From the NCBI GenBank assembly GCA_938091905.1, contig CALKOM010000020.1, forward strand, positions 1-39,156: a DNA stretch of 39,156 nt. Direction: 5' to 3'. The stretch comes from an uncultured Verrucomicrobiales bacterium. Lineage in GTDB: Bacteria; Verrucomicrobiota; Verrucomicrobiia; Verrucomicrobiales; DEV007. Both the position numbers and the translations under genes were made by a program. The notes beneath the pieces were generated by a model that saw nothing but the letters and a program-made list of their open reading frames with translations, was not told the origin of the DNA and ran no database searches. Below, one piece after another: positions 3,172-27,679 of the stretch; positions within the stretch are counted from its first letter, which is position 1, and each line of letters begins with the position of its first letter.

Positions 3172-3175
3172 CCCT

Positions 3176-4304: not shown

Positions 4305-4319
4305 TCTTTTCTCTCCCCA

Positions 4320-10500: not shown

Positions 10501-11148
10501 GCCGAAGCCATTCACACCGAGGCCAAGATGCAGCTGGAGGTTCACGGCCTCTCTGTCGACGACTGGTTGGGGGAGCTGACCCACCACACACTGGATTTCT
10601 TCCACAGTGATCTCGACGGTTTCCGACTCGCTGACATCTCCGATCGCCAGCGGTTGAACGAACTCGCTTTTCACTTCCCTATCGGCAATCTCACGGTGGC
10701 TCGCTTGGAACAATTCTTCGAGGAACACCAGCTGCTGTCTCGCCAGAACGCTTTCGACTTCTTCCCGGTCGAGGGTTTCCTCAAAGGGTTCATCGATTTG
10801 GTGATCCAACACGAAGGCCGTTATTTCATCGCGGACTACAAGTCGAACTTTCTCGGAGGCCACGCTGAAGACTATCATCATGAGCGTCTACCCAGCGTCA
10901 TGGCTGAATCAAATTACGTCCTCCAGTACCATCTCTATGTCGTCGCCCTACATCGATTTCTCAGCTACCGACTCGGCAATACGTACGACTACGACACCCA
11001 CTTTGGAGGCGTGCGTTATCTCTTTGTTCGCGGCATCAGCCAGGAATCTAGTCCTATATTTGGCGTCTTCACTGACCGTCCTTCAGCCTCATTGATAGAA
11101 GACTTGTCACAGTTCCTCACAGGACCACAGGAGGTCGCTCATGGATAG
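7558..11148 (+). CDS. recB: Exodeoxyribonuclease V subunit beta
   Basis: EASAGTGKT, TIHGFC, DEFQDTD, IGDPKQAIY, TVHRSKGLE and YVALTRA motifs, plus nuclease GFIDL...DYKSN...QYHLY. Start is 7558 or 7576. Confidence 0.95.
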   Translation: MSSFSIMHAFDPLDCPLRGCVFIEASAGTGKTHSITSLVLRLVLEKNVEMKEFLLVTYTNAATDELGRKTRERFHLALRQLNDTLPDDLAPDPLVTDLLKEQRIETTTAIKSLRDALLNFDELAILTIHGFCQRLLRDRAFESGQMFDTELEPDEASLVQDTLHDFWRLLVVRQNESFFSYLRQKKLGLPALMDLARTAMSQADADIVPESNEEAPHADLKSWEDLIAEVQAFLDSNENEILATINEAKLNGRVYQAKRTITWLADVRDWLAEPFPLPSTCDKLSRFTNTKLVENTKDGETPPSHAFFDLCDNLSDQGEVLEAMLEHQWVETKRDLLLFLRQRLPERKQLLNRFAYEDLLQNARQALQEESGTLAASLGQQYPIILIDEFQDTDPTQYAIFKHLHDSEDHRLLCLIGDPKQAIYAFRGGDIFTYTHARKQADHLATLGENWRSSPGLIEAVNTVYRVAPRPFWSSAIDYHVVNSPPISLDERQRTLVGEDADIAPMQLWQISEKGPREAEQQCVEATCQEIARLLQLGRDQALHVNGHAVAPSDIAILIRSHWQAPAFQECLQQLGVKTVSYERQHLFQTKEAECFDIFLRVLASPRDENLLKALLLSELMGFTNEDLKLALTDEGRWGSLLEMIGSYRAQWRAESFIVMFRRFLREEYLSQRLLALPNGERSLTNILHLSELVEEAQASKKLSIHATLQWYQDERDSSLSDEKELRLESDDDRVKIVTVHRSKGLEYPFVFMPYAWMGTDRSRKDKDYVSFHQAEQHGHRRVIDVGSESFDMHRGQAGEEALEEELRLLYVALTRAQHRVYLLFAPETKKYKASSLAYLWHHLESDLEGSLSDVKDRLERHTPMRFREDLAKLVGASNGTIALGTWENRNQVTLSQHESERAQAPRQFQAQPSRNWGITSYSSLAGHGETLETPDRDTPDPLPAPEIPAEQLSGMDALPRGARTGNMLHAIYENLSFQASAEAIHTEAKMQLEVHGLSVDDWLGELTHHTLDFFHSDLDGFRLADISDRQRLNELAFHFPIGNLTVARLEQFFEEHQLLSRQNAFDFFPVEGFLKGFIDLVIQHEGRYFIADYKSNFLGGHAEDYHHERLPSVMAESNYVLQYHLYVVALHRFLSYRLGNTYDYDTHFGGVRYLFVRGISQESSPIFGVFTDRPSASLIEDLSQFLTGPQEVAHG

Positions 11149-12865
11149 ACGTTTATCACTGTCTTCTCTGCAAGCATCGGGAGCGATCTCTCCAGTGGAC
11201 GTCCATTTGACCAACCTCGCGGCTCGACTCACCAACGAGTCCCGCCCAGATGTGCAACTTGCCATGGCTCTTGCTAGCCAATGGCCTCAACGCGGTCATG
11301 TTTGCGTAGATCTAGCGAAACTGGTTCCAGATGACCTTTGGGAGAGCCAAGAAATAGCACCAGATGAGCAGGACGTGGTGATGCCTCAGACCGCCAACTG
11401 GATCGCCTCCCTTAAAGACAGCAAAGCGATCGGTTCACCGGGCGACCAGACTCCCTTTGTGCTGCGGAAAGATCGTTGGCTCTATCTTCGACGCCACTGG
11501 ACCTACGAGAATGAGATCTCGATACGCTTAAGATCTTGGTTAATGCGAGGACAGTCCTCCACGCCAGGGCCACTTCACGAAGACAAACAAGAGCAAGCGG
11601 TTCAACTTGCCGCAGCACATCCATTCTTTATCCTCACCGGAGGCCCAGGAACCGGCAAGACGACGACAGTGCTACGCATCCTTGGTCATCTTCTTTCACT
11701 GCATCCGGAACTCAGGATCGCGCTCGCGGCACCTACTGGCAAAGCCGCCCTACGGTTACAAGAATCGATCGCAGCGGGAGTAGCGGCTCTTGAAGTCAAT
11801 GACGCCATTGCCACGGCACTGCTTACCCAGGCACACACACTCCACCGCTTGTTGGGCTATCAACGTCACCAAACGACTTTTAAACATCACGCGGATAATC
11901 CCCTCCCCTACGACCTAGTCATCGTCGACGAAGCTAGCATGATGGATCTGGGACTCTTTGCGAAACTCTTGCGAGCGCTAAAACCTAATACCCGCCTCTT
12001 GCTCGTCGGAGATCGTGAACAATTGCCATCCGTGGATGCCGGCGCGGTCTTTAAAGCCCTGTGTTCTGAACACAGTCCACTGCCTCGCGTCGAACTCACG
12101 CGCAACTATCGCTTTGCCCAGGACACAGGCATCGGCGCTCTCGCAGTCGCCATTCGCAATGGGGATGCAGACCTAACAGAACTTCTCTTGGCCGATGACC
12201 AAGATACGTCCTGCACTCAAGAACCCCTTCCAAGCGCCAGCCAGATGCGAGACGCTCTGTGGCAGAGACTTGGAGCCTATCTAAGAACATTAGCAAATTG
12301 TCCGGAACCTGACCAAGCCTTTGAAAAGCTCGACGAGCTTCGCATCCTCTGCGCGCATCGCAGGGGTCCGTATGGCGCCGAGACCATCAACGAATACGTG
12401 CGCGATATTTTAGCGACACGCATGGGCCAGAGCCGCGCACAGCGTTGGTATCCTGGTCGCCCAATCCTCATCACTGAGAACGACTACGCCGTCGAACTCT
12501 TCAATGGCGACACTGGCATCCTGCTTCCTTGGAACGGCAAGTTGCATGCCTTCTTTCGCACTGGTGACGGCAATTACCGCCGCATCCCTCCCGCCCGCTT
12601 GCCAGCTCACGAATCCGCATACGCCATGACGGTCCACAAGAGCCAAGGGAGCGAATTTACCGACGTTCTGCTAGTGCTCTCAGATCAAGCATCTCGCCTC
12701 CTCACCCGGGAACTGCTCTACACAGGCGTGACCCGCGCTCGGAATACCGTGTCCATATGGGGACCAATCAGCAGCGTACGAGCCAGCGTGGAGCGGCCTC
12801 TCCAACGCACTTCAGGTCTAGCCGCCTGGTTCAAAACAGTGAAGTTGATCCCGAAAGAGTCCTAG
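11141..12865 (+). CDS. recD: Exodeoxyribonuclease V subunit alpha
   Basis: GGPGTGKT, APTGKAA, TLHRLLG, DEASM, GDREQL, TVHKSQGSEF and YTGVTRA motifs. Overlaps the end of recB. Confidence 0.95.
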   Translation: MDRRLSLSSLQASGAISPVDVHLTNLAARLTNESRPDVQLAMALASQWPQRGHVCVDLAKLVPDDLWESQEIAPDEQDVVMPQTANWIASLKDSKAIGSPGDQTPFVLRKDRWLYLRRHWTYENEISIRLRSWLMRGQSSTPGPLHEDKQEQAVQLAAAHPFFILTGGPGTGKTTTVLRILGHLLSLHPELRIALAAPTGKAALRLQESIAAGVAALEVNDAIATALLTQAHTLHRLLGYQRHQTTFKHHADNPLPYDLVIVDEASMMDLGLFAKLLRALKPNTRLLLVGDREQLPSVDAGAVFKALCSEHSPLPRVELTRNYRFAQDTGIGALAVAIRNGDADLTELLLADDQDTSCTQEPLPSASQMRDALWQRLGAYLRTLANCPEPDQAFEKLDELRILCAHRRGPYGAETINEYVRDILATRMGQSRAQRWYPGRPILITENDYAVELFNGDTGILLPWNGKLHAFFRTGDGNYRRIPPARLPAHESAYAMTVHKSQGSEFTDVLLVLSDQASRLLTRELLYTGVTRARNTVSIWGPISSVRASVERPLQRTSGLAAWFKTVKLIPKES

Positions 12866-12936: not shown

Positions 12937-13419
12937 ATGCTAGCAACCATCATCATCCTTCTCGTGCTAGGCGTCGTTGCGATCGGCCTGGAGTTCTTCT
13001 TGCCAGGCGGAATCCTTGGAATCGTTGGCATCGCGGCCATCGCCGGTGCCATCGTCATGTGTTTCACCGAGTATGGACCATCGACGGGACTCATCGTGAC
13101 AACGGTCGCTGTCTTCTTCATCGTCGGAGCTCTCACTCTTTGGCTAAAATACTTTCACAAGTTAGGCCCTGGAAAGGACTTCCTTCTGAGCACCTCGGTC
13201 AGCAATGATGAGGCGCTGGAGCAATATCAGCAATTTCTCGACACCGAAGGGGTGACCAAGACAGATCTTCGCCCAGCTGGCAAGGCTCAGTTCGGCGACA
13301 AACGTCTCGATGTGCTCGCTGAATCTGGTATGATCGACGCTGATACTGCGGTCCGCGTCGTGAAAGTAGAGGGTTCACGCATCGTCGTTCGTCGCACAGC
13401 GCCTCCAGCAACAGTCTAA
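12937..13419 (+). CDS. nfeD: Short NfeD-family membrane protein
   Basis: Hydrophobic N-terminal helices with EFFLPGG. C-terminal TDLRPAGKA...DV...[10 protein letters not shown]-fold motif. Lies upstream of floA. Confidence 0.85.
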
Positions 13420-13450
13420 AACATCAACTAACAACCATCTATTCAAGTCT

Positions 13451-14476
13451 ATGAACACCCCAATCTTAGCTGTAGAGGCCTGGCAATATGGTCTCTTTGG
13501 AATCGTCGCCCTGGTCGCCCTGGTCGTCGTCATCATCCTTCTCAAATTCTTCAATATCTGGCTGCGTGCCCGGGTTGCCGATGCGCCGGTAGCCATGGCT
13601 ACACTCATCGCCATGTGGTTGCGTCGCGTTCCCGTGGGACTCATCGTCGACAGCCGGATCACGGCTTCTAAAGCAGGTCTCGACCTTGTCACCACAGACA
13701 TTCTGGAAGCCCACTACCTTGCTGGTGGTGAAGTGAGCCAAGTCGTTCTCGCCATGATCGCTGCCGATAAGGCAGGTATCAAGCTGAACATCGAAAGGGC
13801 ACAGGCCATCGACCTTGCCGTGAAAGGCACGGGAAAGACTGTCCTGGAAGCTGTTCGCACAAGCATCAACCCAAAAGTGATTGATTGCCCAGGCACAGTT
13901 TCCGGAAAAGATAAGATCGATGCTGTAGCTCGCGATGGTATATCTGTGAGAGCCCGCGCCCGAGTCACCGTTCGCACGAACCTCGACCGGTTTGTCGGAG
14001 GTGCTACGGAGGAAACGATCATCGCCCGTGTGGGTGAAGGCATTGTGACTTCCATCGGCTCCGCGCCGTCTTACAAGGATGTTCTTGAGAATCCAGATAA
14101 TATCTCAAAACTCGTATTGGAGAAAGGCGTCGACGCATCCACGGCTTTTGAGATTCTCTCTATCGACATTGCTGATGTTGATCTTGGTGACAATGTGGGC
14201 GCTAAACTACAAACTGAGCAGGCAGAAGCAGACAAACAGATCGCACAAGCCAAGGCAGAGGTTCGCCGTGCTGCCGCTGTGGCGCTCGAACAAGAGATGG
14301 CTGCAAAGACGCAGGAAATGCGCGCCAAAGTGGTCGAAGCAGAGGCAGAAGTGCCGCGTGCCATGGCCGAGGCCTTCCGCAGTGGTAACCTCGGCGTGAT
14401 GGACTTCGCCCGTTACAAGAATCTCACGGCAGACACCGATATGCGTGATTCTATCGCGCGTGACGGCGAAGACTAA
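13451..14476 (+). CDS. floA: Flotillin-like protein FloA (YqfA/UPF0365)
   Basis: [49 protein letters not shown] and [13 protein letters not shown] motifs. Confidence 0.93.
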
Positions 14477-14497: not shown

Positions 14498-15034
14498 ATG
14501 CCGTTCGACATTCCAGAAGAGTCGATCTTCGTTCTTATCTTTCTCCTGATCAGTTTTCTAAACTGGATCGGCGAGAAAGTGAAGAAGGCCAAGCAGGCAA
14601 GCGCGCAGCGCCGCCCTCAGGTCCGCGGCTACGAAGAAGAGCCGCCAGCTTTCCCTACCGCTCCCGCACCTCAGGCCCCTTCTCGGCCGCAGCCTTCTCG
14701 GCAGGAGGATCCGATGCGTCAAATTCTGGAATCCTTGGGTATTCCGACCGAGACGCCCCCGCCAATTCCAGAACCGTCTCCCCCCATCGCTGCCCCTCGC
14801 CAAGAGTCGAGTGTGACCGAGATCAAGGACAAGGCCCCTTGGGGATCAAAGGGCCTTTCGGATAAGGAGAGAGCCGCCATGGAGAATCTCGCAGCAGGTC
14901 GGGTTGAGGCCACACGGCATCGTGACCGTGGAAGTATCAACAAAGAAGTGCGAAAGCTCCTCACTGCTGACAATACAAAAACGGCATTCGTACTCAAGGA
15001 AATCTTGGACCAGCCCAAGTGCTTCGATAGCTAA
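14498..15034 (+). CDS. Membrane-anchored Pro-rich protein (YqfB-like third gene of the nfeD-floA operon)
   Basis: N-terminal TM segment, Pro-rich middle, C-terminal AFVLKEILDQPK. Position directly after floA. Confidence 0.65.
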   Translation: MPFDIPEESIFVLIFLLISFLNWIGEKVKKAKQASAQRRPQVRGYEEEPPAFPTAPAPQAPSRPQPSRQEDPMRQILESLGIPTETPPPIPEPSPPIAAPRQESSVTEIKDKAPWGSKGLSDKERAAMENLAAGRVEATRHRDRGSINKEVRKLLTADNTKTAFVLKEILDQPKCFDS

Positions 15035-16014
15035 CGTTCGTCATGGCGTGGCTCAACGCTCAATATATAGCGCACGGAGAAGTCTTGCCGACGGCTTTCC
15101 GCTTCCCCACACCATGATTCGCTCCAGGCTCAAAGAGAAGATCGAATTCCTTGTCGGCGTCGTTAAGCGCGTTTAACACCTGTATCGTCGAGGCCGGATT
15201 TACATCCATATCGGGTTTGCCGACGGCTAGGGATAGCTTGCCTTGCCAGCAATGAGCCTGGGTGAAGTTTTATTGCTCTGCGTAAAGCGGTTCCATAGAC
15301 CAATCGATCCAACGCTCAGTCCACCATATCTTGTCCATGCGATTGTCGTGGTAATCACAATCGGCCACTGCAGCACAATTAAACCAAGGACAGGTGTCCG
15401 CGGTGATATGTTGTGCTTATGACTGACATTTACCGAGAGTGTCGAGCATCTTGCCAGGCCAGTGCTCACCGTTGTATTCCTCCTCGGGACACTTCCTGGT
15501 ATCTAGTTGTTGATGAGACGCTGATATTCCTCTACCAGCCTTAAGCAAAGCTTCATGGCGAAGGCTGCCTCTAATCTAAGCATGGCAAAACCCAGTGCCA
15601 ACGAACACCTTGAGATCAAAACTCAATGGCCGTCTTGCCATCCCCAGAACGCACCCGGATTGATTCCATGCACAGGGGTTCGTTCGTGAATGGCTCGCCT
15701 GTCTGGTCTGTTCTCCTAGGGCGATAGCTAGCTGAGTGTGATCGGGGGCTGGTCCGCCTTTCCCTGTGGCCGACTCAATTCAGCTCAAGCGATACGATAC
15801 ACTCCCGAAGCCAGCTCACGCCTGTAGATCAGGCGCTCTGCATCGTCCAGCCAGTGGGAATACAGGTGTTCTTGACCCGATATCGCTCCTCCAGAGCCGC
15901 CTCCGCCTTGTATGCATCCGCGCTTCCTGGGTCTCTAATCGCCAATGATGCGAGCATTGCTAGGAAATGAGAACTACAGACGACAAGAGACCACGAAAAC
16001 GAGAGCGAAAGCAT
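15031..16014 (-). pseudogene. Decayed S9 family (DPP-IV-like prolyl oligopeptidase) gene
   Basis: Manual minus-strand translation gives AVADCDYHDNRMDKIWWTERWIDW...[52 protein letters not shown], then a frameshift to [17 protein letters not shown]-terminal remnants GSADAY, HWLDDAERLIYR and ATGKGGPAPDHTQLAIAL lie in shifting frames. Confidence 0.85.
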
Positions 16015-16094
16015 GGGATAGACGAAGCAACGCCGGGAATGAAGCGATACCAAGCGCACAATCGTCCCTGACCACGCACCGGGACGAGCCTTTC

Positions 16095-16150
16095 AAGTTG
16101 ACCTTAGTTATTTGCAAAAGAATATTATTATCATAATTTCTATGTTAACC
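16095..16150 (+). promoter_or_regulatory. AT-rich putative promoter region upstream of the 2945-aa gene
   Basis: TTGACCTTAGTTATTTGCAAAAGAATATTATTATCATAATTT is an AT-rich patch in a GC-rich background. Exact -35/-10 boxes cannot be assigned. Confidence 0.3.
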
Positions 16151-16233
16151 TGTGCTTGCATAGTGCTTTCCGGTTCCCGAATCAGGGGTAGGCAACTGCG
16201 ATGTACAGCACCCTCCAATGCTAGAGACTGCTC

Positions 16234-19200
16234 ATGAGTTCACCACACGCACCTATCTCCCTTACGGGAACCTTCGATTTGGAGCCCCTCCGCGGGCCTC
16301 TCGAGGCCTGGAGACAACGCTTCGGTTGGGACACTGAACTGGTGATTCGCCCCGCCGCCAGTGATCCAGGCAAACTCGTTAATGAAGGTCTTAAACGTGA
16401 AGATGCTCACTCCATCAATTTCCTGATTGTCCGTCCGAGTGATTGGCCTGATTTTACCATCTCAGACTCCGCTGCCACTCGCAGTGGATCACAAAAAGAC
16501 TCCGCTGCAAACGCCTTCGCTAGCCAACTCCTCAACCAATGTGGTGAGGCTAAACACAATGTGATCGTTCTTCTTGCTCCACCTGAGGACGCCACCGGTG
16601 ACGATGCAAAGGCCTGTGCCAAGCAAGTCGAAAATCACCTGTTTGCGTCGCTGAGCAATAATGACCACGTCCATGTGGCGCGCTCTCCAGAATGGATGGG
16701 GTCCACGAGCGGCACCGATGGAGATCAAATCCCACTCTATCCGGCGCTCGCAATGATTGCTGCGCGCTTCATCCACCAAGCCCACCATCCCGCTCCTAAG
16801 CTTCTGATTGTCCACGACCATGACACTCTTTGGAAAGAAAGCCCGACGCTAGAGAAAAGCGATCCTATCAAAATCGCAGCGGAACACCGCGAGCTTCAAC
16901 GCGCCCTCGCTAGTCAGCGAGAGTCTGGAGCTCTCATCGCCGTTCTTAGTGATGGCCCCGATCACGCTGTTAAGCGGGCGATCCTCGATCACCCGGACAT
17001 GATACTGAAAGCTGACGATATCGTGGATGTCCGTCGCCACTCAACGTCCGCTCGAGAAGCAGTAGAATTGCTCGCGAAACAGCTAGGCATTCCAGGACAC
17101 CACGTAGCCTTCTTATCCAAGAGCGCCGATTTGGTTACCGAACTGCGCAAGCAGCGGTCAGACATCATCAGTATCGTCCTGCCGGAAAATGCGAATGAGA
17201 TCCCAGACTTTCTTGGTCACCTTTGGCTACTCGACAGAGACTTGTCTAACAAAGACATGGGATTAGACGAAGCTAACAAGCAACTGGCAGAGAGCAAACG
17301 ACGCCTTCTGCGCCAAAACTCTCGATCTTTCGCAGACTATGTGGAAGCGCTTGATGTCAAGGTCACCCAAGTTTCGCCAACGCCCGAGCAACATGCCCGA
17401 ATGGCTGAGCTGACTTCGCAGGCAACTCTATTCAATGCCACGGCCCGCCGATTCTCAGAAAGCGAGATCAAGACTTGGCTGAGACGACCATACCATTACG
17501 CAACACTCTTCCGCGTGCAGGACATTCACAGCGATCTCGGCGTCGTTGGACTTATCATGTTTGAGAGAGTCAAACGGACGTTGTTGGTTCATAACTTCCT
17601 CTTGGATGACATTGCCGCGTATCGCGGGGTAGAGAACAGAATGCTCGCTGACCTCTCCGAGATTGCTACGCAGCATAACTGCCTAGATATCGACCTGCCC
17701 TTCCTCTCTTCGGAAGACAACCGGAACACTCAAACGTTTCTTGACCAAATGGTCAGCCACTGCAGACAGGACCTCCCAGAAGAAGGTTGGAGCGTCTTTC
17801 AGGTTCCTATCAAACTAGCGAAGACGCTCGGCGATCGAGACACAGTAGAATTGAAAGAAGCCTACACATCGCCTTTGGACACTGAGGGTCATGTCGCACC
17901 ATCTGAAGCCATTCAGCGAATTGCAAGCACGTGGCGGACACTCTCTCAGTTAGACCACCAAAACTCTATCATCGAATCAGAGGCGTCCTCCTGCGCCCCG
18001 AGCGAAGATAGCCCACTTGTATCACCATTCATCGTCGTAAGCCCACCAGCAACCGACGACGCCGGCAAGGAATCGGCACCCGCGCCTCCAGATGGACCGT
18101 TTGCTCTCTCTCCGATTCAGTCATGGTTCTTCCATCAGAATATTGAAGGGCGAGATCATTGGAACAATGCGCTTATGCTCCAAACGAAGAAGCCTCTGGA
18201 TTGTAAGCTGCTTGAGAGGTCTCTCACGGAAGTGTCAAATCGACATGCTATCTTCCGTTTGAAGTTTCATCTCAAGACCGGCGAGTGGCGACAGGAATAT
18301 AGTAAGACCACTGGTGGCGACCTTCTCAGGGTTGTCGATCTAAGAAAGGCTTCTGACAATGGTATCCAAGACCAGATTGAGACGATCGCTGCGGCTACGC
18401 AAGGCAGACTGAACATTCGCCAAGGAGCTCTCTTACGCGCCGTCTACTTCGATCTAGGCGCGAAACGACCAGCAAGACTGCTCTTAGTCGCCCATCAACT
18501 CGTGATTGATTCCACCTCGTGGGGAATCTTCTTGAAAGACCTTGCTACGGACTATGAAGCTCGTTCCCATGGAGCCGATCCGCAATTCCCAGCAAAAACA
18601 GCTTCCTATGCGACGTGGCTTGAAGAGATCAGTCAAGTACCCAGAGTGGCTCGTGAGGCCTACATGGATGTTCTCGCGGATAGCGCTAGCGCCTCCATTG
18701 GCATTCCCGCAGACTTCGAGAATCCCGGCAGAAACATTGAGGGGAGTCAGGAGCAATTAGAAATAAGCCTCGATGAGGAAAACTCCAAAGTCTTGCTCAG
18801 CCAATCGCAGCCTGTTGAAGCCATCTTGGCTGCAAGCTTGGCCCATACGTTCCAGGCTCTAGAAGCAAAACCGACACTGGCCAACTGGACTTGGGAAGAC
18901 CGTAAGACCGTTACTAACGTTAGTCAGACTATAGGATGGTGCGAGCAATCGGCGCCCATCCTTCTTTCACCTTCTGGTAGCTTCGAAGACACCGCGAACA
19001 ATCTAGGCAAACAACTTGAAACGCTTCAGGAGATTCATGGAATTGGAAACCCCGACACAGATCTGCCTGCGCCGTGGATGAGCTTTCGTCACCGCAAAGC
19101 GACTACCACTGAGCTAACCGCAGAATGCTTGTTCCAGCCCTCTCAAGAAGCCGTTGGTGCATTGCACAGTCCGAGAGCCCTCCGTAGCTACAAAGTTGTC

Positions 19201-22200
19201 TTAGAATCACGAGAAGCAGATGGCAAATTCGTCTTTCGATGGAGCTACAGCCGGCATTTACATAAGCGCGAGACGATCGAAAACCTTGCCAATAAGCACC
19301 TTTCCGAACTGCAAAAGCACCTGGCCAGCAAGCACGGGGCGCTTGATCCCGATCTTAACCTGACCCAGCGAATCATCGAAAGCCCATTTACCATAGTTTC
19401 GGACAAAGCGGATGGCCTCACGCCAAAGATCAAACCGCAAGAGAAGGCTCTCACGCAACTGTCGAACAAGATTCCGAGCGAAAATTCAAATGCTGCCGTT
19501 ACGCTTATAAAGGAAGCACGCCTCGCTAAAGATGCATGGCTTAAGGAGGAAGCACACCGCGCTAAAGAGGCTCGGCTTGCCGAAGAAGAACGTCTTGCTA
19601 AAGAGGTTCACCTCGCTGAGGAGGCTCACCTACTAAATCAGGCAGCTGAAAAGGTCAGCCGTCCAGCACTTCTCATCGCGTCCGAAAACACTAACGAACT
19701 GCTAAATACTGAACGTGTAACTCTCGCCAAACAGCTTCCTCTTCAAAATACAGAAGGCCTTCAGGAGATCGCTAGCATTCTAGCAACGAGCAAACACACC
19801 AAGGCACATCGCTCCAGCATGGCAATGACAGATCTTGACCAGACAAGGCTTCTGCTCAATCAATCGATCAACACGCTTGCAGCAACGCCCCAACCTCCGA
19901 CCGTCTTCCTCTTTCCCGATTCCTGGGCAGCCCACCCCCTCATGGGTAAGGGGCTCTACGAGTGTGAGGCGACATTTCGCGAAGTCATTGACTGGTGCGG
20001 TGACACACACCGTCAACTAAACGGCCACGATTTGAGAGAGACCCTCTTCGATCCCAAGCAGTTCAGCCAGACGTCGATCCACACAGACGCCGCCGTATTC
20101 GCCATGGAATTCGCGCTCGCACGCCTCTGGATGTCTTGGGGAGTCTATCCTGATGCATGTCTCGGTCAAGGAATTGGCGAGTATGTCGCCGCATGCCTGG
20201 GCGGCGTGTTTACAATTGAAGAAGGTCTAGCACTCATCGCTAAACGAGCCGAACTCATCTCCAAGCGTTGTCCTGAGGGACGGGTTCTCAAGGTGAATGC
20301 ACCAGCTAAAGAAGTGAAACCCTTCTTAAAACAGCAAGTCGACGTCGCTGCGTATCAGTCGACCAAGTGTACCCTAATTACAGGGCCTACCCGACGTGTC
20401 GAAGCTCTTGAGGAAATCCTGCAGACCCAAGGCATTGCATTCACTGCTCTCGGTTACTCCACCCCTCGCCAGAGCAATGCCATGGACGTGATCGAAGACG
20501 CTTTCGAAACCGTTCTCTCTTACGTCGATCTCCAGCCCACTCAAATTCCATTTATCTCTGGAGTCACTGGGGATTGGGTGATGGATGAGGCTGCAAGCGC
20601 TCCTACTCATTGGATTTCACAACTCTCAAAGCCTTTGCGTATTAGCGAAGGTCTCAACCATTTGGAGGGAGCGTTCTCTGGTCTGGCTCTCGAAGTAGGA
20701 CCGGGAGATACACTCACCGATAGTTTGAAACAGTCCGATGTCACTGGCCTTAGAGCATTCAGTGGAACCACCCAAGGCCCACAAGACGAAATGCACCACA
20801 TCGTTTCGACCTTAGGGAAGCTTTGGGAACAAGGCGTTCCTGTCGATTGGCATGCATTCCATGGTGTCGACACCGTAGCTCTCTCCAAAGCACCATCCGA
20901 AGAAACCGAGCCAGGAGCTGCAGACACGTCGCCCGAAATTCAATATGCTGAACCTGCTAGTGAAGAAAAAACAGATCCACCAACGATAAATCGCCCACCC
21001 TTAGGAGCCCAAGCTGCCGCTCAACTTCTTCTGAGCCAAGATCCCCTTCGAGAGTCGTCGCAGGAGCCTTCGGAGAATGCCCCCATTCAAGAAAGTTTTG
21101 AGGAAGTAGAGATCGATCAGACCACGAACGACTCCTTCGACTCTACTGAGGAATCCAACTCGACCACTCTTGCAGACCTTCCAAATAACGAGGCCCGAAG
21201 TGACACGCCACCAAGCGCGCCAGACAGCCAGGAGGAGGTATCTCAAGCGCCATCAAACACACCCCTAGGCGATCCTGCCAAGCTTCACTGTAGATTCGAA
21301 CAAATTGAAAATGCCCTCGACGACCTTCGTTCAGCAGTCTTCCCGTCAACGCCCGAGACCGCAGGCCCAGAAGATGCACCGCTTCCTGCAGGGATTGCAG
21401 ACTACATGGAAGAAGTTAATGCCCGTATCCGCGAAGCCGCCCCGCAAAGCCAGCAACGGATCGCTTCTACAAAAGCCCTCTTAGGGGAACCAGCTTCAAA
21501 CAACGCTGACATTCTAATTATTCGCCAACTCGGTGGCCAAGCTTGGGATGCGGACGAGAGAAACTACGTTGATATCTCCCCCTCAGTTTCCAAGCATTTG
21601 TTAGGATATTCAGCACCGGAGATCCTCAAAGCCTACCGTCACCATCTCCAGCCAGCAGCGACATCAGATGCTCTCCACGCCCTCAAGTTCGAGGTCAGTA
21701 AAGCAATCTCCTCACAGAATGGATCTGACAGGGTCACCTTCACCCAATCTTCTGCGGATGCTCTGAGCCTCAGTTTCATGCTCGCTAAGGAGCATTCGAA
21801 TCGGCCTGCAATCGGCCTGGTAAAGCCAAACCAAGGAGGGAACGTCGGCCACTGTCTAACTTTGCCAGCCGACGCCTCCCAACTCACCTCACAAATCTAT
21901 CGTCGTCGTCGCGAACTTGCCGCCATCGTGGTGAATCCTCTTGATCTTATTCAGTTGGAAGAAGATGAGCGCACAAAGATCCTTCAGACCGTTCGCGAAG
22001 AAACTGAGCGTTGGAATATCGCATTCATCCTCGATGAACGGGACACTGCATTCCGGTGGAATATTCTAGGTCACTCCAAGCACGCCCCGATCAAACCTGA
22101 CATCGTCATCTACGGTGAGCCCCTCGCTGATGGACTTCCCCTGGGAATCGTCAGTGGCAATGCCGAATGGTTCGATGGACGTCGAAGCACAGAGGATGAG

Positions 22201-25071
22201 TTTGCAACGTTATCGAACACTCTCCCTTTGGTGGCGGCTCACGCGACACTGAACGCGATCAACCGTGCTTCTGCCGAACGCATCCCTCAGTGGCAAGAAC
22301 GCACCACACACCTCCTAGCAGGACTCAAGGCGGTCGCAAACGAACTAGACGCTCCTCTGAAAATCCGTCGCCTAGGCGCACTATTCACGCTTGAACCTAG
22401 TAGTTCTCCTGACGAATCGCGTCTATTTGAAGCCGAGAGCCTACTGCAGGGCGTGCGGCTTTCTACCAGTGCGGTGAATGCCACTACACTATCGCATACA
22501 GAACAAGACCTTGCCCGCGTACACAACGCTTTCATCGAGAGCTTTCACGCTCTACAAGATCGGGGATTCCTGCTCGTAGACTTTGCTGCTTATCAAGCCC
22601 GACTTGCAGGGAAAAAGGACAAGAAGCTATTGGGGTATTGGGAAAATCACCTAACAGGTGCACAGGGCTCTTGGCCAGCTGATTATGTAGACAAATCTGA
22701 AAAGTCTCAAAAGACACTTCGCTATGCGCTGCCCACGCAACTTGCTCAAGCCCTGGACACACGGGCCAAGGCTCTCAACGGCCAATACGAGAATCTTCTC
22801 CTCGCCTGCTTCCAAAGACTCTTCCAAGCCTGGAGCGGCACGGACCGAATTGCGTTCCTGGCAAATATCGAAGGAGTCAATACACCGCTCTGCTCTGCCC
22901 GCGAACCTGACACCATCAATCAATCCATTGAACGAATCTGTGAAGCGAAAGAGCTGGCAATTGAGAATACATTGTTCCAACCAGAGACTTTCGTGGCTTG
23001 GCTAGCCAACCACGGACCAACCTGTGGTTTCTCTCTCGACGAAATCCCAGAAGAACTGGCCATCCATTGGCAGATCACCTCAAGCTCCGTCCTCTGCGAC
23101 TACGACGCGTCAAGGTATCACGAAGACACTATCGCGCGTTGGATGGATTGCTTCATTGTACTTCTAGAAGGATTTGCTACAATGCCTATGGAGACCCTCG
23201 TAGAGGAACTTCCTCTTGTCTCCAGCAGCGATTTCCAGAATCTAGTCATTAGCCGAAATCTTACCACCACAGGAAGCTTTCCCAATGAGCCAGTTCACAA
23301 GTTGTTCGAATCGGTTGCGGCCAAAACGCCAAGTAGAATTGCTGTCCGCTACGGACACGATAAGCTTTGCTATGGAGACCTCAATACTCGAGCAGATCAA
23401 CTCGCAGCCGCCTTGCTGCAGCAGGGGGTCGATACCGGCGATACGATCGCCGTCCTAGCTGAGCCTTCACCCCTTATGTTAGAGGCATGGCTGGCCATTC
23501 TTAAAGTTGGCGCTGCCTATCTGCCTTTAGATCCTCAGCATCGCGCTGATCCTGACACTCTGAAAATGGCGCAAGTCAAACTCCTCCTTTCCGACCAGCC
23601 GGTCTCCGACTCGCAAGAGTGGACAAGCAAAGAACTAGAGATTCAGGACCTTAATCTACTTTCTAAGGGCATCCAGCCAACTGCCAATGAGACGCCCACC
23701 TCGCATTTTGGAAGTTTGAACGCTTCCGCCACCGTGCTCTTCGATTGGACAAAGCAGTCCTCAGCTCCAGTCAGCCTGCCTCATCGAAGTCTCGTTCGCT
23801 TGGTCAAGAATACAGACTATGCCACGCTAAGCCCTCATGAAGTGTTCTTGCTAGGAGGATCACCTTCATCGGATCGATGCTTACTAGAGGTCTGGGGAGC
23901 CTTGCTCAACGGAGGAGTCCTCGCTATTCCCCAGGGAATGCGTTCCACTGCGAATCTGGCTGAAACGATAGGCAAACAACGGGTCAGCTCGCTGGTCCTC
24001 ACCTCTGAAGAACTCACAAATTTAATGGAGCGCCATGCGGAAGACCTATCCTGGATCCGCCAAATCGTCATCACAGACAAACGCCCCGCTCGCGAGATCG
24101 TTGCCCGTATTCTAGAAGAACTCCCTGTCAGCCTCACCATTGGTTACGGCTCCCTGTATAACTCTCTCCTGACATGTTGTCACACCATCACTGAGGAGGA
24201 TTTAGAAGCAGAATTCACCAACCTGGGCTCTCCGATCCCACATACTCAAATCTACCTGCTTAACGAAGCCCACCAACCAGTACCAACAGGCATGACTGGA
24301 GACGTTTGGGTAGGCGGAGACGGGCTCGCACTCTTCCAGGATACAGATCAGCGGAAAGACGTGGTCAAGAGCAGATTCACACCCTCCGAAGGAGTGCTCT
24401 TCCACACTGGCACACGTGCCATGTGGCACGAGGACGGTTCACTTATTCTTGCCAAGGACGGTCTACGATCTAACATCCACCCAACCAGCAACCCCCTAAG
24501 CGTAACGCCGCTGTCCACTAGAACAACGGGCCAGCCCATCTTCTTCATTGCAGCCAGCCCCTCAGATAAGGATATTTGTCAGGAGATTGCGGATAGCTCA
24601 ATCAGTGATCGTCCCGCCTATCTCATCGTGACCGACTTTGTTCATGCCTCCGAAAAGTGCGTCGAGAGCATGGCTGAAGCGTGCCTGGCAGAGATTCGGA
24701 GCCGCATTGGAGGGGAATCCTTCATTGTCACTGGTGGGCCACTAGGAGGGACTATAGCCTACGAAGTTGGCCAGCAGGCGATGGACCAGGGAGATTCCTT
24801 GGACTCCGTGGCTTTATTCGATACGATTAATCCAGCTGCTGAAGAAAGTGAGGGACAACACGATTGCCCGCCGCTTCAGGCTTATGTGCCCAGAGCGTAT
24901 CAGGGTGCCATCACACTCTTCCGCCACGACACCCACACCGGACTGCATCAACTCGGTTGGGACGGTCTCGTGAGAGGTGGCATGACGGTGATATCCACAA
25001 GGGACACCTCAGATGTTGCAGCGAAGTTCAAAGGCCTATTAAGCAATAGCACACTGCTAGAATCTCCGTGA
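16234..25071 (+). CDS. Hybrid FkbH-like / E(C) / AT / class-III aminotransferase / C-remnant / A / TE multidomain protein with degenerate catalytic motifs
   Basis: Approximate domains: FkbH-like 16250-17800; epimerisation-type C 18100-19320 (LSPIQSWFF, PAKTASY); AT 19900-20850 (VFLFP, LARLWMSWG, LEVGPG, GVPVDW); aminotransferase 21500-22570 (WDADERNYVDI, FILDE); C remnant 22570-23200; A 23290-24450 (LKVGAAYLP, EVWGALLNGG, GSPIPHTQIY); TE 24490-25050. Confidence 0.85.
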   Translation: MSSPHAPISLTGTFDLEPLRGPLEAWRQRFGWDTELVIRPAASDPGKLVNEGLKREDAHSINFLIVRPSDWPDFTISDSAATRSGSQKDSAANAFASQLLNQCGEAKHNVIVLLAPPEDATGDDAKACAKQVENHLFASLSNNDHVHVARSPEWMGSTSGTDGDQIPLYPALAMIAARFIHQAHHPAPKLLIVHDHDTLWKESPTLEKSDPIKIAAEHRELQRALASQRESGALIAVLSDGPDHAVKRAILDHPDMILKADDIVDVRRHSTSAREAVELLAKQLGIPGHHVAFLSKSADLVTELRKQRSDIISIVLPENANEIPDFLGHLWLLDRDLSNKDMGLDEANKQLAESKRRLLRQNSRSFADYVEALDVKVTQVSPTPEQHARMAELTSQATLFNATARRFSESEIKTWLRRPYHYATLFRVQDIHSDLGVVGLIMFERVKRTLLVHNFLLDDIAAYRGVENRMLADLSEIATQHNCLDIDLPFLSSEDNRNTQTFLDQMVSHCRQDLPEEGWSVFQVPIKLAKTLGDRDTVELKEAYTSPLDTEGHVAPSEAIQRIASTWRTLSQLDHQNSIIESEASSCAPSEDSPLVSPFIVVSPPATDDAGKESAPAPPDGPFALSPIQSWFFHQNIEGRDHWNNALMLQTKKPLDCKLLERSLTEVSNRHAIFRLKFHLKTGEWRQEYSKTTGGDLLRVVDLRKASDNGIQDQIETIAAATQGRLNIRQGALLRAVYFDLGAKRPARLLLVAHQLVIDSTSWGIFLKDLATDYEARSHGADPQFPAKTASYATWLEEISQVPRVAREAYMDVLADSASASIGIPADFENPGRNIEGSQEQLEISLDEENSKVLLSQSQPVEAILAASLAHTFQALEAKPTLANWTWEDRKTVTNVSQTIGWCEQSAPILLSPSGSFEDTANNLGKQLETLQEIHGIGNPDTDLPAPWMSFRHRKATTTELTAECLFQPSQEAVGALHSPRALRSYKVVLESREADGKFVFRWSYSRHLHKRETIENLANKHLSELQKHLASKHGALDPDLNLTQRIIESPFTIVSDKADGLTPKIKPQEKALTQLSNKIPSENSNAAVTLIKEARLAKDAWLKEEAHRAKEARLAEEERLAKEVHLAEEAHLLNQAAEKVSRPALLIASENTNELLNTERVTLAKQLPLQNTEGLQEIASILATSKHTKAHRSSMAMTDLDQTRLLLNQSINTLAATPQPPTVFLFPDSWAAHPLMGKGLYECEATFREVIDWCGDTHRQLNGHDLRETLFDPKQFSQTSIHTDAAVFAMEFALARLWMSWGVYPDACLGQGIGEYVAACLGGVFTIEEGLALIAKRAELISKRCPEGRVLKVNAPAKEVKPFLKQQVDVAAYQSTKCTLITGPTRRVEALEEILQTQGIAFTALGYSTPRQSNAMDVIEDAFETVLSYVDLQPTQIPFISGVTGDWVMDEAASAPTHWISQLSKPLRISEGLNHLEGAFSGLALEVGPGDTLTDSLKQSDVTGLRAFSGTTQGPQDEMHHIVSTLGKLWEQGVPVDWHAFHGVDTVALSKAPSEETEPGAADTSPEIQYAEPASEEKTDPPTINRPPLGAQAAAQLLLSQDPLRESSQEPSENAPIQESFEEVEIDQTTNDSFDSTEESNSTTLADLPNNEARSDTPPSAPDSQEEVSQAPSNTPLGDPAKLHCRFEQIENALDDLRSAVFPSTPETAGPEDAPLPAGIADYMEEVNARIREAAPQSQQRIASTKALLGEPASNNADILIIRQLGGQAWDADERNYVDISPSVSKHLLGYSAPEILKAYRHHLQPAATSDALHALKFEVSKAISSQNGSDRVTFTQSSADALSLSFMLAKEHSNRPAIGLVKPNQGGNVGHCLTLPADASQLTSQIYRRRRELAAIVVNPLDLIQLEEDERTKILQTVREETERWNIAFILDERDTAFRWNILGHSKHAPIKPDIVIYGEPLADGLPLGIVSGNAEWFDGRRSTEDEFATLSNTLPLVAAHATLNAINRASAERIPQWQERTTHLLAGLKAVANELDAPLKIRRLGALFTLEPSSSPDESRLFEAESLLQGVRLSTSAVNATTLSHTEQDLARVHNAFIESFHALQDRGFLLVDFAAYQARLAGKKDKKLLGYWENHLTGAQGSWPADYVDKSEKSQKTLRYALPTQLAQALDTRAKALNGQYENLLLACFQRLFQAWSGTDRIAFLANIEGVNTPLCSAREPDTINQSIERICEAKELAIENTLFQPETFVAWLANHGPTCGFSLDEIPEELAIHWQITSSSVLCDYDASRYHEDTIARWMDCFIVLLEGFATMPMETLVEELPLVSSSDFQNLVISRNLTTTGSFPNEPVHKLFESVAAKTPSRIAVRYGHDKLCYGDLNTRADQLAAALLQQGVDTGDTIAVLAEPSPLMLEAWLAILKVGAAYLPLDPQHRADPDTLKMAQVKLLLSDQPVSDSQEWTSKELEIQDLNLLSKGIQPTANETPTSHFGSLNASATVLFDWTKQSSAPVSLPHRSLVRLVKNTDYATLSPHEVFLLGGSPSSDRCLLEVWGALLNGGVLAIPQGMRSTANLAETIGKQRVSSLVLTSEELTNLMERHAEDLSWIRQIVITDKRPAREIVARILEELPVSLTIGYGSLYNSLLTCCHTITEEDLEAEFTNLGSPIPHTQIYLLNEAHQPVPTGMTGDVWVGGDGLALFQDTDQRKDVVKSRFTPSEGVLFHTGTRAMWHEDGSLILAKDGLRSNIHPTSNPLSVTPLSTRTTGQPIFFIAASPSDKDICQEIADSSISDRPAYLIVTDFVHASEKCVESMAEACLAEIRSRIGGESFIVTGGPLGGTIAYEVGQQAMDQGDSLDSVALFDTINPAAEESEGQHDCPPLQAYVPRAYQGAITLFRHDTHTGLHQLGWDGLVRGGMTVISTRDTSDVAAKFKGLLSNSTLLESP
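19510..19635 (+). repeat. Seven degenerate 18-bp (6-aa) tandem units encoding a charged helix
   Basis: KEARLA KDAWLK EEAHRA KEARLA EEERLA KEVHLA EEAHLL. Confidence 0.8.
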
Positions 25072-25081
25072 GGAGAGTAGT

Positions 25082-26602
25082 CTAGTGACGGTCAATCGTG
25101 AGGATCTCTTGAGTCTCCTCATTTCGAATGAGAAGTTGATGGGGACGCATATCGGTCACGGTGTAGGACTCTTGTGTCTCCGCAATCGTGAACACATCGC
25201 CCAGCCGCGCCGCAAAGCGCTGCTTAGAGCGTTTCGCCTCCACCACAAGATGAGTGGCCTCGTCGCGAGGCAACGTATTGCGAACGAATCGTTGCTCACC
25301 GTCTTTCTGGCTACTCTTTACGTAGACCTCTGAGATGTCGAGCATACCACCACCCTTGGTAGGCCTTACCCGCTTGTTCACTCGTGTCACTTCGTAAGAG
25401 GTGTTGGGAATACGCTGACCAACGAGAACCGTAATCATCGCCTCTTCCGGAGGACGTCCGAGAAGGCGCATACTTGCTTTATCACCATCTACGTCGGTGA
25501 CTAATAGAGGTTCGAACCGCTCTTCGAATCGTCCCAACTGCAACTCAGTCTGTAAATCAACAGGCTTCGAAGTGGCAGCAGAACTGGTTCCGATCGGATC
25601 ACCCTTCTTGATAATCACAGGTTTCACCAATAAAGTAGGTGGTCGGGGATTCGCCGGATCCACGTCACTTTCTTCCATCGATTCCTCATCAGGGGATTCT
25701 AATACTGGCCGCTCAGGCTCAATAGGATCGAGAGAGCCCACAACGTCATTCATCATCGGCTCGGAAAGCAATACAATGAGTTGCCCATCTAGGCTGGGAA
25801 GGAATTCGTTGTTGGCCGGCACACCTGAGGCAAGAAGATTGGAGGTGTCACGCAGAATGGCGGCCAACGCTGGTAGATTGGCCGCCTCCGCACGATCTGC
25901 CGCCGTTCTGCCATTATCATCTAGGGCGAAACGGTTCGCATGGTGACGGAGCAAGAGCTGCGTGGCCTCCATGTGCCCCTTGCCAGCAGCATACATCAGC
26001 GGCGTCTGTGTATCATGACTACGGCAATTCACATAGGCACCACGTTCAATGAGAACCTCAAGGCAATGCGTGTAACCCTGTGCCGAGGCCAACATAAGCG
26101 CTTTGTCAAGCGAACGAACATCCCGTTCTGACAATCGCCTCACCCCATCGACATTGCCAGCAAGCGCAGACACCATGAGTGATGTCATGCCACTACTGTC
26201 CACCGCGAGAGGATCGGCACGATTCTCAAGAAGAAACTCTAGCATACGCAAATCACCACCGACACGATCGGCCACACGCATTAGCATCGTGCGCCCATTC
26301 GCAAGGCGCTGATCTGGCGAGGCTCCTGCCTCGATCAGAACTCGCACAAGCTCATCGTGATCTTCCGACGCAGCGTTTTGAAATGCGGTTAGGCCGTTCT
26401 CTCCCTCAACATCGACAGCCATACCCGCTTCGAGGTACTCTATCACGGCAGGAGCATCTCCGTTGGCTGCGGCACCATGGTAAGCACTCACAGCGAAGCT
26501 ATAGCCTCGCTCTTCCAGCTGACTGAGCGCCACCTCTTCCCGATCTCGACAAGCCGTCAAAGGTAGGAAGAGACCAAGACTAAGGAGAATAAGGACACGC
26601 AT
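25082..26602 (-). CDS. Ankyrin-repeat lipoprotein with a C-terminal beta-rich domain (possibly Amuc_1099-like)
   Basis: Signal peptide with lipobox LTAC from ATG 26602. Ankyrin repeats GLTAFQNAA, GRTMLMRVA, GMTSLMVSA and QTPLMYAA. Acidic/Pro linker, then DISEVYVK...LGDVFTI...YTVTDM. Confidence 0.75.
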   Translation of the reverse strand: MRVLILLSLGLFLPLTACRDREEVALSQLEERGYSFAVSAYHGAAANGDAPAVIEYLEAGMAVDVEGENGLTAFQNAASEDHDELVRVLIEAGASPDQRLANGRTMLMRVADRVGGDLRMLEFLLENRADPLAVDSSGMTSLMVSALAGNVDGVRRLSERDVRSLDKALMLASAQGYTHCLEVLIERGAYVNCRSHDTQTPLMYAAGKGHMEATQLLLRHHANRFALDDNGRTAADRAEAANLPALAAILRDTSNLLASGVPANNEFLPSLDGQLIVLLSEPMMNDVVGSLDPIEPERPVLESPDEESMEESDVDPANPRPPTLLVKPVIIKKGDPIGTSSAATSKPVDLQTELQLGRFEERFEPLLVTDVDGDKASMRLLGRPPEEAMITVLVGQRIPNTSYEVTRVNKRVRPTKGGGMLDISEVYVKSSQKDGEQRFVRNTLPRDEATHLVVEAKRSKQRFAARLGDVFTIAETQESYTVTDMRPHQLLIRNEETQEILTIDRH

Positions 26603-26725
26603 GGCTCGAACATCACTAGCACGAAGCTCAACGGATAACACGGAAAATCTTGACTCGACTCGGTGAGAGTTTCTCGTTAGACTTTTTAGAAATATACAAA
26701 ATTTTATCCAACACACATTAACCTC

Positions 26726-27679
26726 ATGCGTCATTGCCTCCCACTCTTCTTATTCCTTGGACTCAGCATATTCGCCGCAGAGGCTCAGGAACACCGCTAC
26801 GCAATCGCTATTCATGGGGGCGCTGGCTCGGCACCTTCAAACTTTAGCAAAGAAGCCAACATCAAGCGCGCTGCTTCGATGAAAGCAGCTCTGGAGACCG
26901 GCACCAACATTCTCAAAGACGGCGGCACGAGTCTCGACGCGGTGGAAGCCGTCGTGCGCCTGCTTGAGGACGATGCTCAATTCAATGCCGGTCGCGGTGC
27001 GGTCTTTAATGCAGCTGGCGGTCACGAGCTCGACGCCTCGATCATGGATGGCAGGACGTTGGCCTGCGGAGCTGTGGCCGGGGTCACCACCACAAAGAAT
27101 CCCATCACCCTCGCTCGTCTCGTCATGACGGACACCCGACACGTGCTCTTGTCAGGACCTGGTGCCGATAAGTTTGCCGAGGAGAAGAAGGTGCCTCTAG
27201 TAACCCAAGACTACTTTCACACCCTCGCCGCACGCAAAGCCTGGCAAGACAGCCGCGCGAAACACAGCAAAGGCACGGTCGGATGCGTTGCGCTGGACAG
27301 CCATGGCAATCTTGCTGCAGCGACGTCCACGGGTGGACTCTCGAACAAAAAGTTTGGTCGCGTAGGCGATTCGCCGATCGTTGGCGCAGGCACCTACGCG
27401 GACAATACCACCTGCGCCGTGTCGTGCACTGGCACCGGCGAAGAGTACATTCGCCGTGCAATCGCCTACGATATGGCAGCCCAAATGCGCTACGCCAGTA
27501 CCCCAATTGATAAGGCAGCAAACGAAATCCTAACTCAACGCCTAAAGAAGAACACAGGAGGAATCATCGCCGTAGACAAAGACGGCAAGATCACGATGCA
27601 ATTCAACACAGGAGGCATGGCACGCGCAGCGGCCGATTCCAAAGGGAGATTCGAAGTGATCTGGGGCGAAGAAAAGTAA
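26726..27679 (+). CDS. iaaA: Isoaspartyl peptidase / L-asparaginase (Ntn hydrolase) with a signal peptide
   Basis: [25 protein letters not shown], autocleavage site GTVGCVA, STGG, GRVGDSP and SCTGTGE motifs. Confidence 0.92.

Follow-up and report, generated by a model that had tools for sequence, protein, structure and literature searches.

The question raised by this locus is whether a relative of the large synthetases of non-ribosomal peptides (NRPSs) and synthases of polyketides (PKSs) can be maintained as a protein after losing the chemistry of every one of its domains. The window, by which we mean the whole analysed stretch of 39,156 nucleotides from an uncultured Verrucomicrobiales bacterium (contig CALKOM010000020.1 of assembly GCA_938091905.1, a draft genome of 212 contigs, hereafter G000), carries on its forward strand at positions 16234-25071 an open reading frame (ORF) of 2945 codons plus stop, which starts at the first ATG, three codons downstream of an in-frame stop. 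The initial annotation of this ORF had described it as free of stops and frameshifts and yet broken at the active-site motif of every NRPS/PKS-type domain, and had proposed that the fold may be selected without the chemistry, for a role such as scaffold, multi-ligand sensor, decoy or regulator. The frame is indeed uninterrupted, although a random sequence of this length and base composition should contain some 119 stops (probability of an open frame ~1.5e-53). We argue here, with a probability that we put at roughly 70%, that its product (P0001) is a multi-domain pseudoenzyme, selected, non-catalytic and probably dimeric, whose origin lies in an FkbH-primed hybrid line of MycA/McyE-like type.

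Read from the N terminus, the protein consists of an FkbH-like region, a condensation/epimerization-like domain (C/E-like, here C1), an acyltransferase-like (AT) domain, a class-III aminotransferase-like (AmT) domain, half of a second condensation domain (C'), the core of an adenylation (A) domain and a lid-less thioesterase-like (TE) part (Table 1). Homology of these parts to their families is evident from profile matches: in Pfam, Condensation covers residues 624-1028 (E 4.9e-47, 161.1 bits) together with a second stretch, AMP-binding residues 2358-2699 (E 4.7e-39, 134.7 bits), Acyl_transf_1 residues 1237-1499 (E 1e-23, 84.8 bits) and Aminotran_3 residues 1891-2075 (E 7.3e-18, 64.9 bits), all four passing curated cut-offs of about 30-33 bits. 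The Thioesterase match (E 9.1e-05, 23.2 bits) lies under its cut-off of 26.4 bits in the whole protein and reaches 27.0 bits when the segment is scanned alone, and 37.3 bits in the orthologue from genome G028. For the head of the protein, the NCBIfam FkbH model TIGR01686 matches residues 186-506 (E 7.6e-32, 110.7 bits, under its cut-off of 146.65), ESM features recognise the FkbH family at 0.95, and an ESM Atlas search with residues 1-620 returned solely FkbH/HAD-IIIC clusters; among solved structures, the sole match to residues 1-560 is a weak one to a HAD protein (3slr, E 0.044). Of the other parts, C1 has its solved relatives in PvdL and the TycA E domain, the AT-like part in trans/cis-AT structures (5yda, ZmaA, CurL), the A core in TycA and LgrA, and the aminotransferase-like part in glutamate-1-semialdehyde aminomutase (GSAM) and the MycA AMT domain. 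As a separate feature of the C1-to-AT linker, a run of about 40 residues rich in E, A, K and R (residues ~1090-1130, window ~19500-19630) resembles a single-alpha-helix spacer; it extends to about 90 residues in the orthologue of G001 (L016, residues ~1060-1150), is short in that of G005 and is absent from that of G028.

The catalytic motifs were read from per-domain MAFFT alignments in which the reference was an intact paralogue of the same genome, P0122 (contig C52, L013:2056-12924, + strand), a protein of 3622 residues with the order FkbH-ACP-KS-AT-ACP-AmT-C-A-PCP-TE (ACP, acyl carrier protein; KS, ketosynthase; PCP, peptidyl carrier protein) and all canonical motifs. FkbH proteins are characterised by the DxDxT motif of the HAD fold, by SKN and FIDD motifs and by an acyl-accepting Cys. 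In the window protein DADNTLW of the paralogue reads HDHDTLW (residue 194, nt 16813), SSKN reads LSDG, FIDDN reads FLSKS, and the acyl-Cys column LSCRA reads LLDDI (~nt 17596). The same pattern continues along the chain, with HHLVCDG replaced by HQLVIDS in C1 (residue 754, nt 18493), PGQG by PDSW, GHSVG by GQGIG (residue 1311, nt 20164) and HGFHS by TPRQS in the AT-like part, YGKVIGGG by YGEPLADG in the aminotransferase-like part (nt 22117), YTSGSTGNPKG by F-DWTKQSSAP at A3 (nt 23740), YGPTE by YGSLY at A5 and RTGD by HTGT at A7 of the A core, and GYSFGG by GGPLGG in the TE-like part (nt 24733). Glu also occupies the column of the pyridoxal phosphate (PLP)-binding Lys when the solved structures GSAM 2e7u and MycA AMT 6kfm are aligned by HMMER. 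Every motif replacement listed in the initial annotation, including the loss of the PLP Lys, is thereby recovered at the position it had given.

Its description of every domain as broken was correct and at the same time too cautious, as it had missed the loss of all carriers, of the KS and of the C-terminal subdomain of the A domain. PP-binding (PF00550), ketoacyl-synt and AMP-binding_C gave no match at E <= 0.01 in the whole protein; no PP-binding match appeared at E <= 1 in the linkers 506-620, 1031-1215 and 1546-1719 scanned alone, or in residues 2741-2945 scanned with the TE-like part; and no GxDS-type carrier motif occurs in the window protein, P0122 having three. The spacing from C1 to the AT-like part is only about 185 residues. 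C' (residues 2106-2340) matches condensation profile positions 177-275 only, some 35 residues separate the A core from the TE-like part, and the TE-like part is without some 67 lid residues and the His-bearing stretch. Since carrier, KS and A C-terminal subdomain are missing, C' is halved and the TE has no lid, the protein cannot operate as an assembly line, and this holds regardless of single residues. It falls outside functional NRPS/PKS lines by its carriers, A, C, AT/KS and TE alike, outside PLP aminotransferases by the Lys and the PLP-site loops, and outside FkbH by all four motifs; what it has are the marks of a pseudoenzyme, namely catalytic residues lost, a loss common to orthologues, and purifying selection on the coding sequence.

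Relatives with the same losses exist in marine Verrucomicrobiales, as the initial annotation's proposed homologue search was meant to find. Searching 5.8 billion proteins by a word index produced 666 matches, and among the best 120 of these the carrier-less Pfam set occurs only in the protein's own 90% cluster (44 members, with database names such as 'FkbH-like protein' and 'aminotransferase class III-fold PLP-dependent enzyme [Verrucomicrobiales bacterium]') and in P0003 (2947 aa, 43% identity). Searched with a HMMER profile built from the FkbH-like and C1 parts together, 1.84 billion representatives yielded 62082 matches at E <= 0.001; among the 150 best of these, seven of which were domain-scanned, the carrier-less members recognised were only P0003, P0140 and P0145, the last a 458-aa fragment of 74% identity that carries HDRDTLW, LSDG and LLDD, and PP-binding stands between FkbH and C in all five of the non-family matches scanned. 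Genome searches covered 61 related genomes and then 134 genomes of the family. The orthologue in the congener G001 is 2947 aa long, without stops and 44% identical; that in the congener G005 is split over two contig ends (1052 + 1196 aa, abutting in the AT region, no stops); and that in G028, of another genus, is P0140 (2564 aa, no stops).

The replacements are themselves conserved among these family members: HQLxxD in 3/3 of those with C1, G(Q/V)GxGEY in 4/4, YGExLxDGLP, with Lys to Glu, in 3/3, GGP(L/F)GG together with the lid and His deletions in 3/3 of those with a TE-like part, and absence of the A3 P-loop in 4/4. Some motifs vary, G005 keeping TGD at A7 and both G005 and G001 reading YGPLE at A5. 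In an AT tree of 45 rows made by a quick method, the four dead ATs form one clade on a long stem (Shimodaira-Hasegawa-like approximate likelihood ratio 98-100), with P0122 and its G001 orthologue elsewhere, and this single clade indicates one origin of the dead state. We also considered the gene as a recent duplicate of P0122 and rejected this, the ATs of the two branching apart in the tree.

The coding sequence has remained under purifying selection, stronger on the domains than on the linkers. Four genes were compared between G000 and G001, and in each of them the four-fold degenerate sites are saturated, with differences of 0.68-0.73 (0.73 in the dead gene). The non-synonymous divergence (dN) of the dead protein, at 0.57 (amino-acid identity 44%), stays far below the saturated synonymous divergence; the values are 0.27 (66%) for the active paralogue, 0.37 (58%) for the ankyrin-repeat neighbour and 0.23 (72%) for the asparaginase. 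By region, dN in the dead protein and in its active counterpart is 0.46 and 0.44 for FkbH, 0.41 and 0.26 for the A core, 0.47 and 0.18 for AT, 0.58 and 0.17 for AmT, 0.65 and 0.25 for C', and 0.73 and 0.27 for TE, with 0.61 in the dead C1; its linkers lie at 0.70-0.90, against 0.41-0.73 for its domains. Identity between the G000 and G001 proteins peaks at residues 401-500 (71%), 701-800 and 1301-1400 (both 56%), 1901-2000 (50%) and 2501-2700 (63-66%), and dips in the linkers.

The same contrast is seen within the population. The full-length metagenome contig L018 (99.2% nucleotide identity) differs by 26.5 synonymous and 41.5 non-synonymous changes, giving a ratio of non-synonymous to synonymous rates (dN/dS) of 0.49 and a synonymous excess with p = 0.0025-0.0054, and contig L019 (residues 1-1861) gives 0.54; together with a third contig, L020, they carry no stop or indel, the independent contigs being 98.6-99.2% identical. 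Nine full-length protein variants have 138 variable columns, whose density per 100 residues is 4.0 in domains but 8.1 in linkers (Fisher p = 2e-4), and 4 of the 138 fall inside the stretches of former motifs. At the same locus, in contrast, decay has left of an S9 peptidase gene just fragments lying in two frames.

For the aminotransferase-like part a retained fold is also suggested by modelling. An AlphaFold2 model of residues 1700-2125, built with moderate confidence on an alignment of five rows (predicted local distance difference test score, pLDDT, 69.7; predicted template-modelling score 0.70), was compared with the PDB by Foldseek and matches best the MycA AMT domain, 6kfm_A (E 9e-27, template-modelling score 0.78), followed by class-III aminotransferases and GSAMs; in sequence, phmmer links the part to 6kfm at E 6.5e-17. 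Two copies of the same residues folded as a complex scored 0.79, the best of three controls scoring 0.00, on a scale whose mark 20 of 30 proteins solved as same-chain pairs attain, as does 1 of 23 single-chain ones, counts that hold roughly only, the complex having used its own five-row alignment. At least 87% of contacts are common to the runs, with a partner pLDDT of at least 82, and we consider that the protein is probably homodimeric, although the score may reflect likeness to solved class-III aminotransferase dimers rather than dimerisation of this copy. The predicted interface includes Glu1962, in the place of the former Lys, and DGLP at 1966-1969, and this position offers, if the model holds, a non-catalytic reason for the conservation of the former active-site stretch. 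Taken together, losses shared among orthologues, a dN far under the saturated synonymous divergence with a population dN/dS near 0.5, the contrast between domains and linkers, and the aminotransferase model support what the initial annotation had put forward as retention of the fold without the ancestral chemistry, and the MycA AMT as closest structural match supports the descent it had proposed from a MycA/McyE-like hybrid line.

The course of events that we propose would start from an FkbH-primed hybrid NRPS/PKS with the order FkbH, (ACP), C, (KS), AT, (ACP), aminotransferase, C, A, (PCP), TE. This line would, in an ancestor of at least two Verrucomicrobiales genera, have lost the carriers, the KS, the C-terminal subdomain of A, half of the second C and the TE lid and have had the catalytic residues of every remaining domain replaced, which would make loading, carrying, extending, aminating and releasing by the ancestral chemistry impossible. 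Selection would afterwards have preserved the reading frame and the domain folds, leaving a large 'beads-on-a-string' pseudoenzyme that is likely devoid of activity and whose folded domains may bind partner proteins or ligands of the ancestral type without converting them. A bolder version, in which the whole hybrid line has become a stand-alone homodimeric non-catalytic protein whose seven dead domains retain their binding surfaces and serve jointly as a multi-ligand sensor, buffer or regulator or as a scaffold for partner proteins, appears to us unlikely in this full form.

Several observations weigh against a selected, non-catalytic role. The gene is present in 4 of the 134 family genomes and in 3 of the 6 of its genus, and is thus rare and dispensable; domain content drifts, G005 being without C1 and the TE-like part and G028 without the aminotransferase-like part; and the congener G002 has, at the syntenic site and divergent from the S9 peptidase gene, only a 259-codon N-terminal stump; in this respect the initial annotation overstated a uniform intactness. 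In most domains the rate of evolution is 1.6-3.4 times that of the active paralogue (2.6-3.4 times in AT, AmT, the C-lobe and TE), as under relaxed constraint, the population dN/dS is no lower than about 0.5, and on L020 (299 codons, 13 changes) it is ~1.0. The maxima of conservation at former active sites could equally mean residual or new chemistry, and the shallow alignment behind the aminotransferase model counts here too. Gene neighbourhoods in G000, its congeners and G028 yielded no operon partner and no cluster context. In metatranscriptomes, four runs from three studies, picked using this gene and of low depth, gave contigs of 151-299 nt that are not strand-specific; of the 32 pieces listed, 21 fall within the gene (97-100% identity), and pieces also cover the broken intergenic stretch 15355-15606, so that DNA carry-over is possible and transcription is not proven. 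Bins with no cover, 22458-23519 for example, carry no weight either way.

The patchy distribution, the stump, the loss of whole domains, the faster evolution, the population dN/dS of 0.5-1.0 and the disappearance of all chemistry are what one would also expect of a functionless dead duplicate that by luck is still free of stops and frameshifts. Yet synonymous sites are saturated while some 2945 codons remain open in both G000 and G001, as do the frames in G028 and G005, and this contradicts decay: one such frame staying open by chance has a probability of ~1e-53, none of the domain deletions in the orthologues breaks the frame, constraint in the population is twice as strong on domains as on linkers, and the true pseudogene next door shows what decay has done over the same period. 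We therefore hold a decaying relic to be very improbable. A chimeric contig, or sequencing errors masking true motifs, might be suspected in a genome of this draft quality, but independent assemblies from several sources carry the same 2945-aa protein or variants of at least 96% identity, 16 DNA runs from at least 10 studies contain half or more of the gene's sampled words, the metagenome contigs are free of indels and orthologues occur in three other species, which leaves an artefact with next to no likelihood.

Conservation in its own right also bears on a further explanation, in which at least one domain keeps or has gained a carrier-independent activity through other residues, candidates being the C-terminal part of the FkbH-like region, the A core and the HQ-type C domain. 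The identity maxima between G000 and G001 sit exactly at the former active sites, the replaced motifs are conserved in their turn, the FkbH-like part evolves as slowly as active FkbH and the A core is slow too, and residues of a binding type survive: the Asp of the A4 column in 3/4, the Asp of the aminotransferase F/LDE motif and, as read from translations, an Arg about 25 residues after the position of the AT nucleophile. Such an enzyme would, however, have to work with all nucleophiles and bases gone (the HAD Asp pair, the acyl-Cys, the second His of HHxxxDG, the AT Ser and His, the PLP Lys, and the TE Ser and His), with no ATP P-loop, no A C-terminal subdomain to hold the A10 Lys and no DYHGN loop in the aminotransferase-like part; the domains it would need vary among orthologues, and in the aminotransferase domain at least the predicted dimer interface would explain the conservation without chemistry. 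A non-canonical enzyme is to our judgement improbable, and the selected, non-catalytic pseudoenzyme is the reading that we retain.

The surroundings of the gene in G000 are not those of a biosynthetic cluster, its neighbours being RecBCD, NfeD/flotillin, ankyrin-repeat, asparaginase and sugar/amino-acid enzyme genes. Named from their translations, RecC-RecB-RecD-like genes form a row in the window at 4281-12865 (+ strand; 1096, 1247 and 574 aa, gene ends overlapping), and NfeD-like and flotillin-like genes (12937-14476) lie 3' of it; a Pro-rich ORF of 178 aa follows at 14498-15034, with no Pfam family on scan, and then a gap at 15035-16233 with no ORF of note. Into this gap fall the remains of the S9 peptidase gene (prolyl oligopeptidase/DPP-IV type), with a weaker second piece at ~15654-15779; of the two nearby pseudogenes with stops and frameshifts that the initial annotation had reported (GxxExxY and S9 peptidase), this is the one confirmed here. 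G005 has an intact copy (755 aa) in divergent placement, and G002 has the gene as well. The G002 stump (L022, contig C13, ~2690-3470, + strand) matches residues 8-200 at 35% identity and ends just past the former HAD motif (IDDPETLW); it may be what a truncation left behind or else an N-terminal domain that stands on its own. On the other side, the stops of the dead megasynthase gene and of the ankyrin gene are 10 bp apart (window 25069-25084), with no space for separate terminators. Within the genus synteny holds for the S9 peptidase, ankyrin and asparaginase genes; it is lost in G028, where the orthologue is flanked by genes for a Ser/Thr kinase-WD40 protein and HemD/CobA-HemC. The G001 locus (L017 / L016:18773-19954, - strand) has a second ankyrin gene upstream of the orthologue, a 393-aa fusion of ankyrin repeats with a YkuD L,D-transpeptidase. 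A link to defence systems did not emerge from PADLOC, which assigned 0 families to the protein and matched the ankyrin neighbour solely via its repeats.

Table 1. Parts of the motif-dead, carrier-less megasynthase relative and adjacent features, in window coordinates.
Feature	Position	Strand	Evidence or remark
S9 peptidase remnant, C-terminal ~115 codons, two frames	15046..15383	-	Comparison with intact 755-aa copy in congener G005
Sigma-70-like promoter match TTGACC-17-AATATT, ~108 nt 5' of ATG	16098..16126	+	Match to consensus only
Whole gene, motif-dead, carrier-less megasynthase relative (P0001)	16234..25071	+	ORF, Pfam, NCBIfam, alignments
FkbH-like region, residues 1-505	16234..17748	+	51% identity to G001 orthologue (71% at residues 401-500); among the best-conserved parts
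Linker 1, residues 506-619, where the active paralogue has an ACP	17749..18090	+	No Pfam family; 114 residues
C1, condensation/epimerization-like, residues 620-1030	18091..19323	+	HHxxxDG = HQLVIDS
Linker 2, residues 1031-1214, E/A/K/R-rich helical stretch, then KS-AT linker remnant; no KS	19324..19875	+	KS-AT linker Pfam matches are in the G028 and G005 orthologues
AT-like, residues 1215-1545	19876..20868	+	GQG to DSW, GHSxG to GQGIG, HAFHS to TPRQS
Linker 3, residues 1546-1719, acidic, Ser/Pro-rich, low complexity, at the site of the paralogue's second ACP	20869..21390	+	174 residues
Class-III aminotransferase-like, residues 1720-2105	21391..22548	+	PLP Lys to Glu; ~28 residues including DYHGN deleted; fold kept
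C', C-terminal condensation lobe only, residues 2106-2340	22549..23253	+	HHxxxDG lobe absent
A core, residues 2341-2740	23254..24453	+	No A3 P-loop, A5 = YGSLY, A7 = TGT; no A8-A10 or PCP after
TE-like alpha/beta-hydrolase core, residues 2775-2945	24556..25068	+	GGPLGG (Ser to Pro); lid and His stretch deleted
Ankyrin-repeat gene, 550 aa, convergent with the megasynthase-like gene	25082..26734	-	Syntenic in G000, G001 and G005, all three congeners with the dead gene

If the reading of a selected pseudoenzyme is true, NRPS/PKS folds can be reused for roles beyond assembly-line chemistry, and the natural carrier-less domain boundaries and in-frame deletions could be useful for engineering, with a narrow distribution limiting the immediate impact. 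For genome mining the gene would then be a warning: given the database names it bears, a domain-based match does not imply a product.

Among known systems, the MycA/McyE-type PKS-NRPS modules share with the window protein the order AT, aminotransferase, C, A, and its aminotransferase-like part is closest to the solved MycA AMT (6kfm) in sequence as well as in modelled fold. Unlike these modules the window protein has no KS, no ACP or PCP, no PLP Lys and no other catalytic residue, and it has an added FkbH-like head and C/E-like domain. The paralogue P0122, representative of a type of frame of 3.6-3.9k aa with the same three-part match that at least 10 of 37 listed genomes of the family contain, is colinear with it (FkbH, AT, AmT, C, A, TE) at local identities of 19-32% (29% in FkbH, 30% in AT, 19% in AmT, 32% in A), but has three carriers and every motif, and an ACP-KS where the dead protein has its C/E-like domain. 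The best non-family matches in which an FkbH part is followed by a condensation domain, among the matches listed, are FkbH-PCP-C-A lines (P0169, P0197, P0220), which have PP-binding between FkbH and C and full A-PCP modules, the window protein having neither.

Inactive domains of the KS0 and AT0 type occur in working lines. In the albicidin line a non-functional A domain with degenerate core motifs retains its fold, as described in passages of PMC8949500. The albicidin, KS0 and AT0 lines are complemented in trans and keep their carriers, whereas the window protein has nothing left to complement. The clearest precedent for a fold kept and a chemistry lost in this enzyme class is the X domain of glycopeptide-antibiotic NRPSs, a C-type fold that is inactivated at HHxxxDG and recruits P450s (PMC8949500, in the passages that treat it). 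There, one dead domain sits in an active line and has a known partner, the P450 Oxy enzymes; here all domains are dead and no active module accompanies them. The full-text literature searched, which did not cover subscription journals, yielded no description of a whole carrier-less, all-dead megasynthase. Dead single domains and pseudoenzymes are established, and their extension to an entire megasynthase is the new element; should a stand-alone role prove true, the protein would be the first 'pseudo-megasynthase' with its own biological role, rather than a dead domain within a working line.

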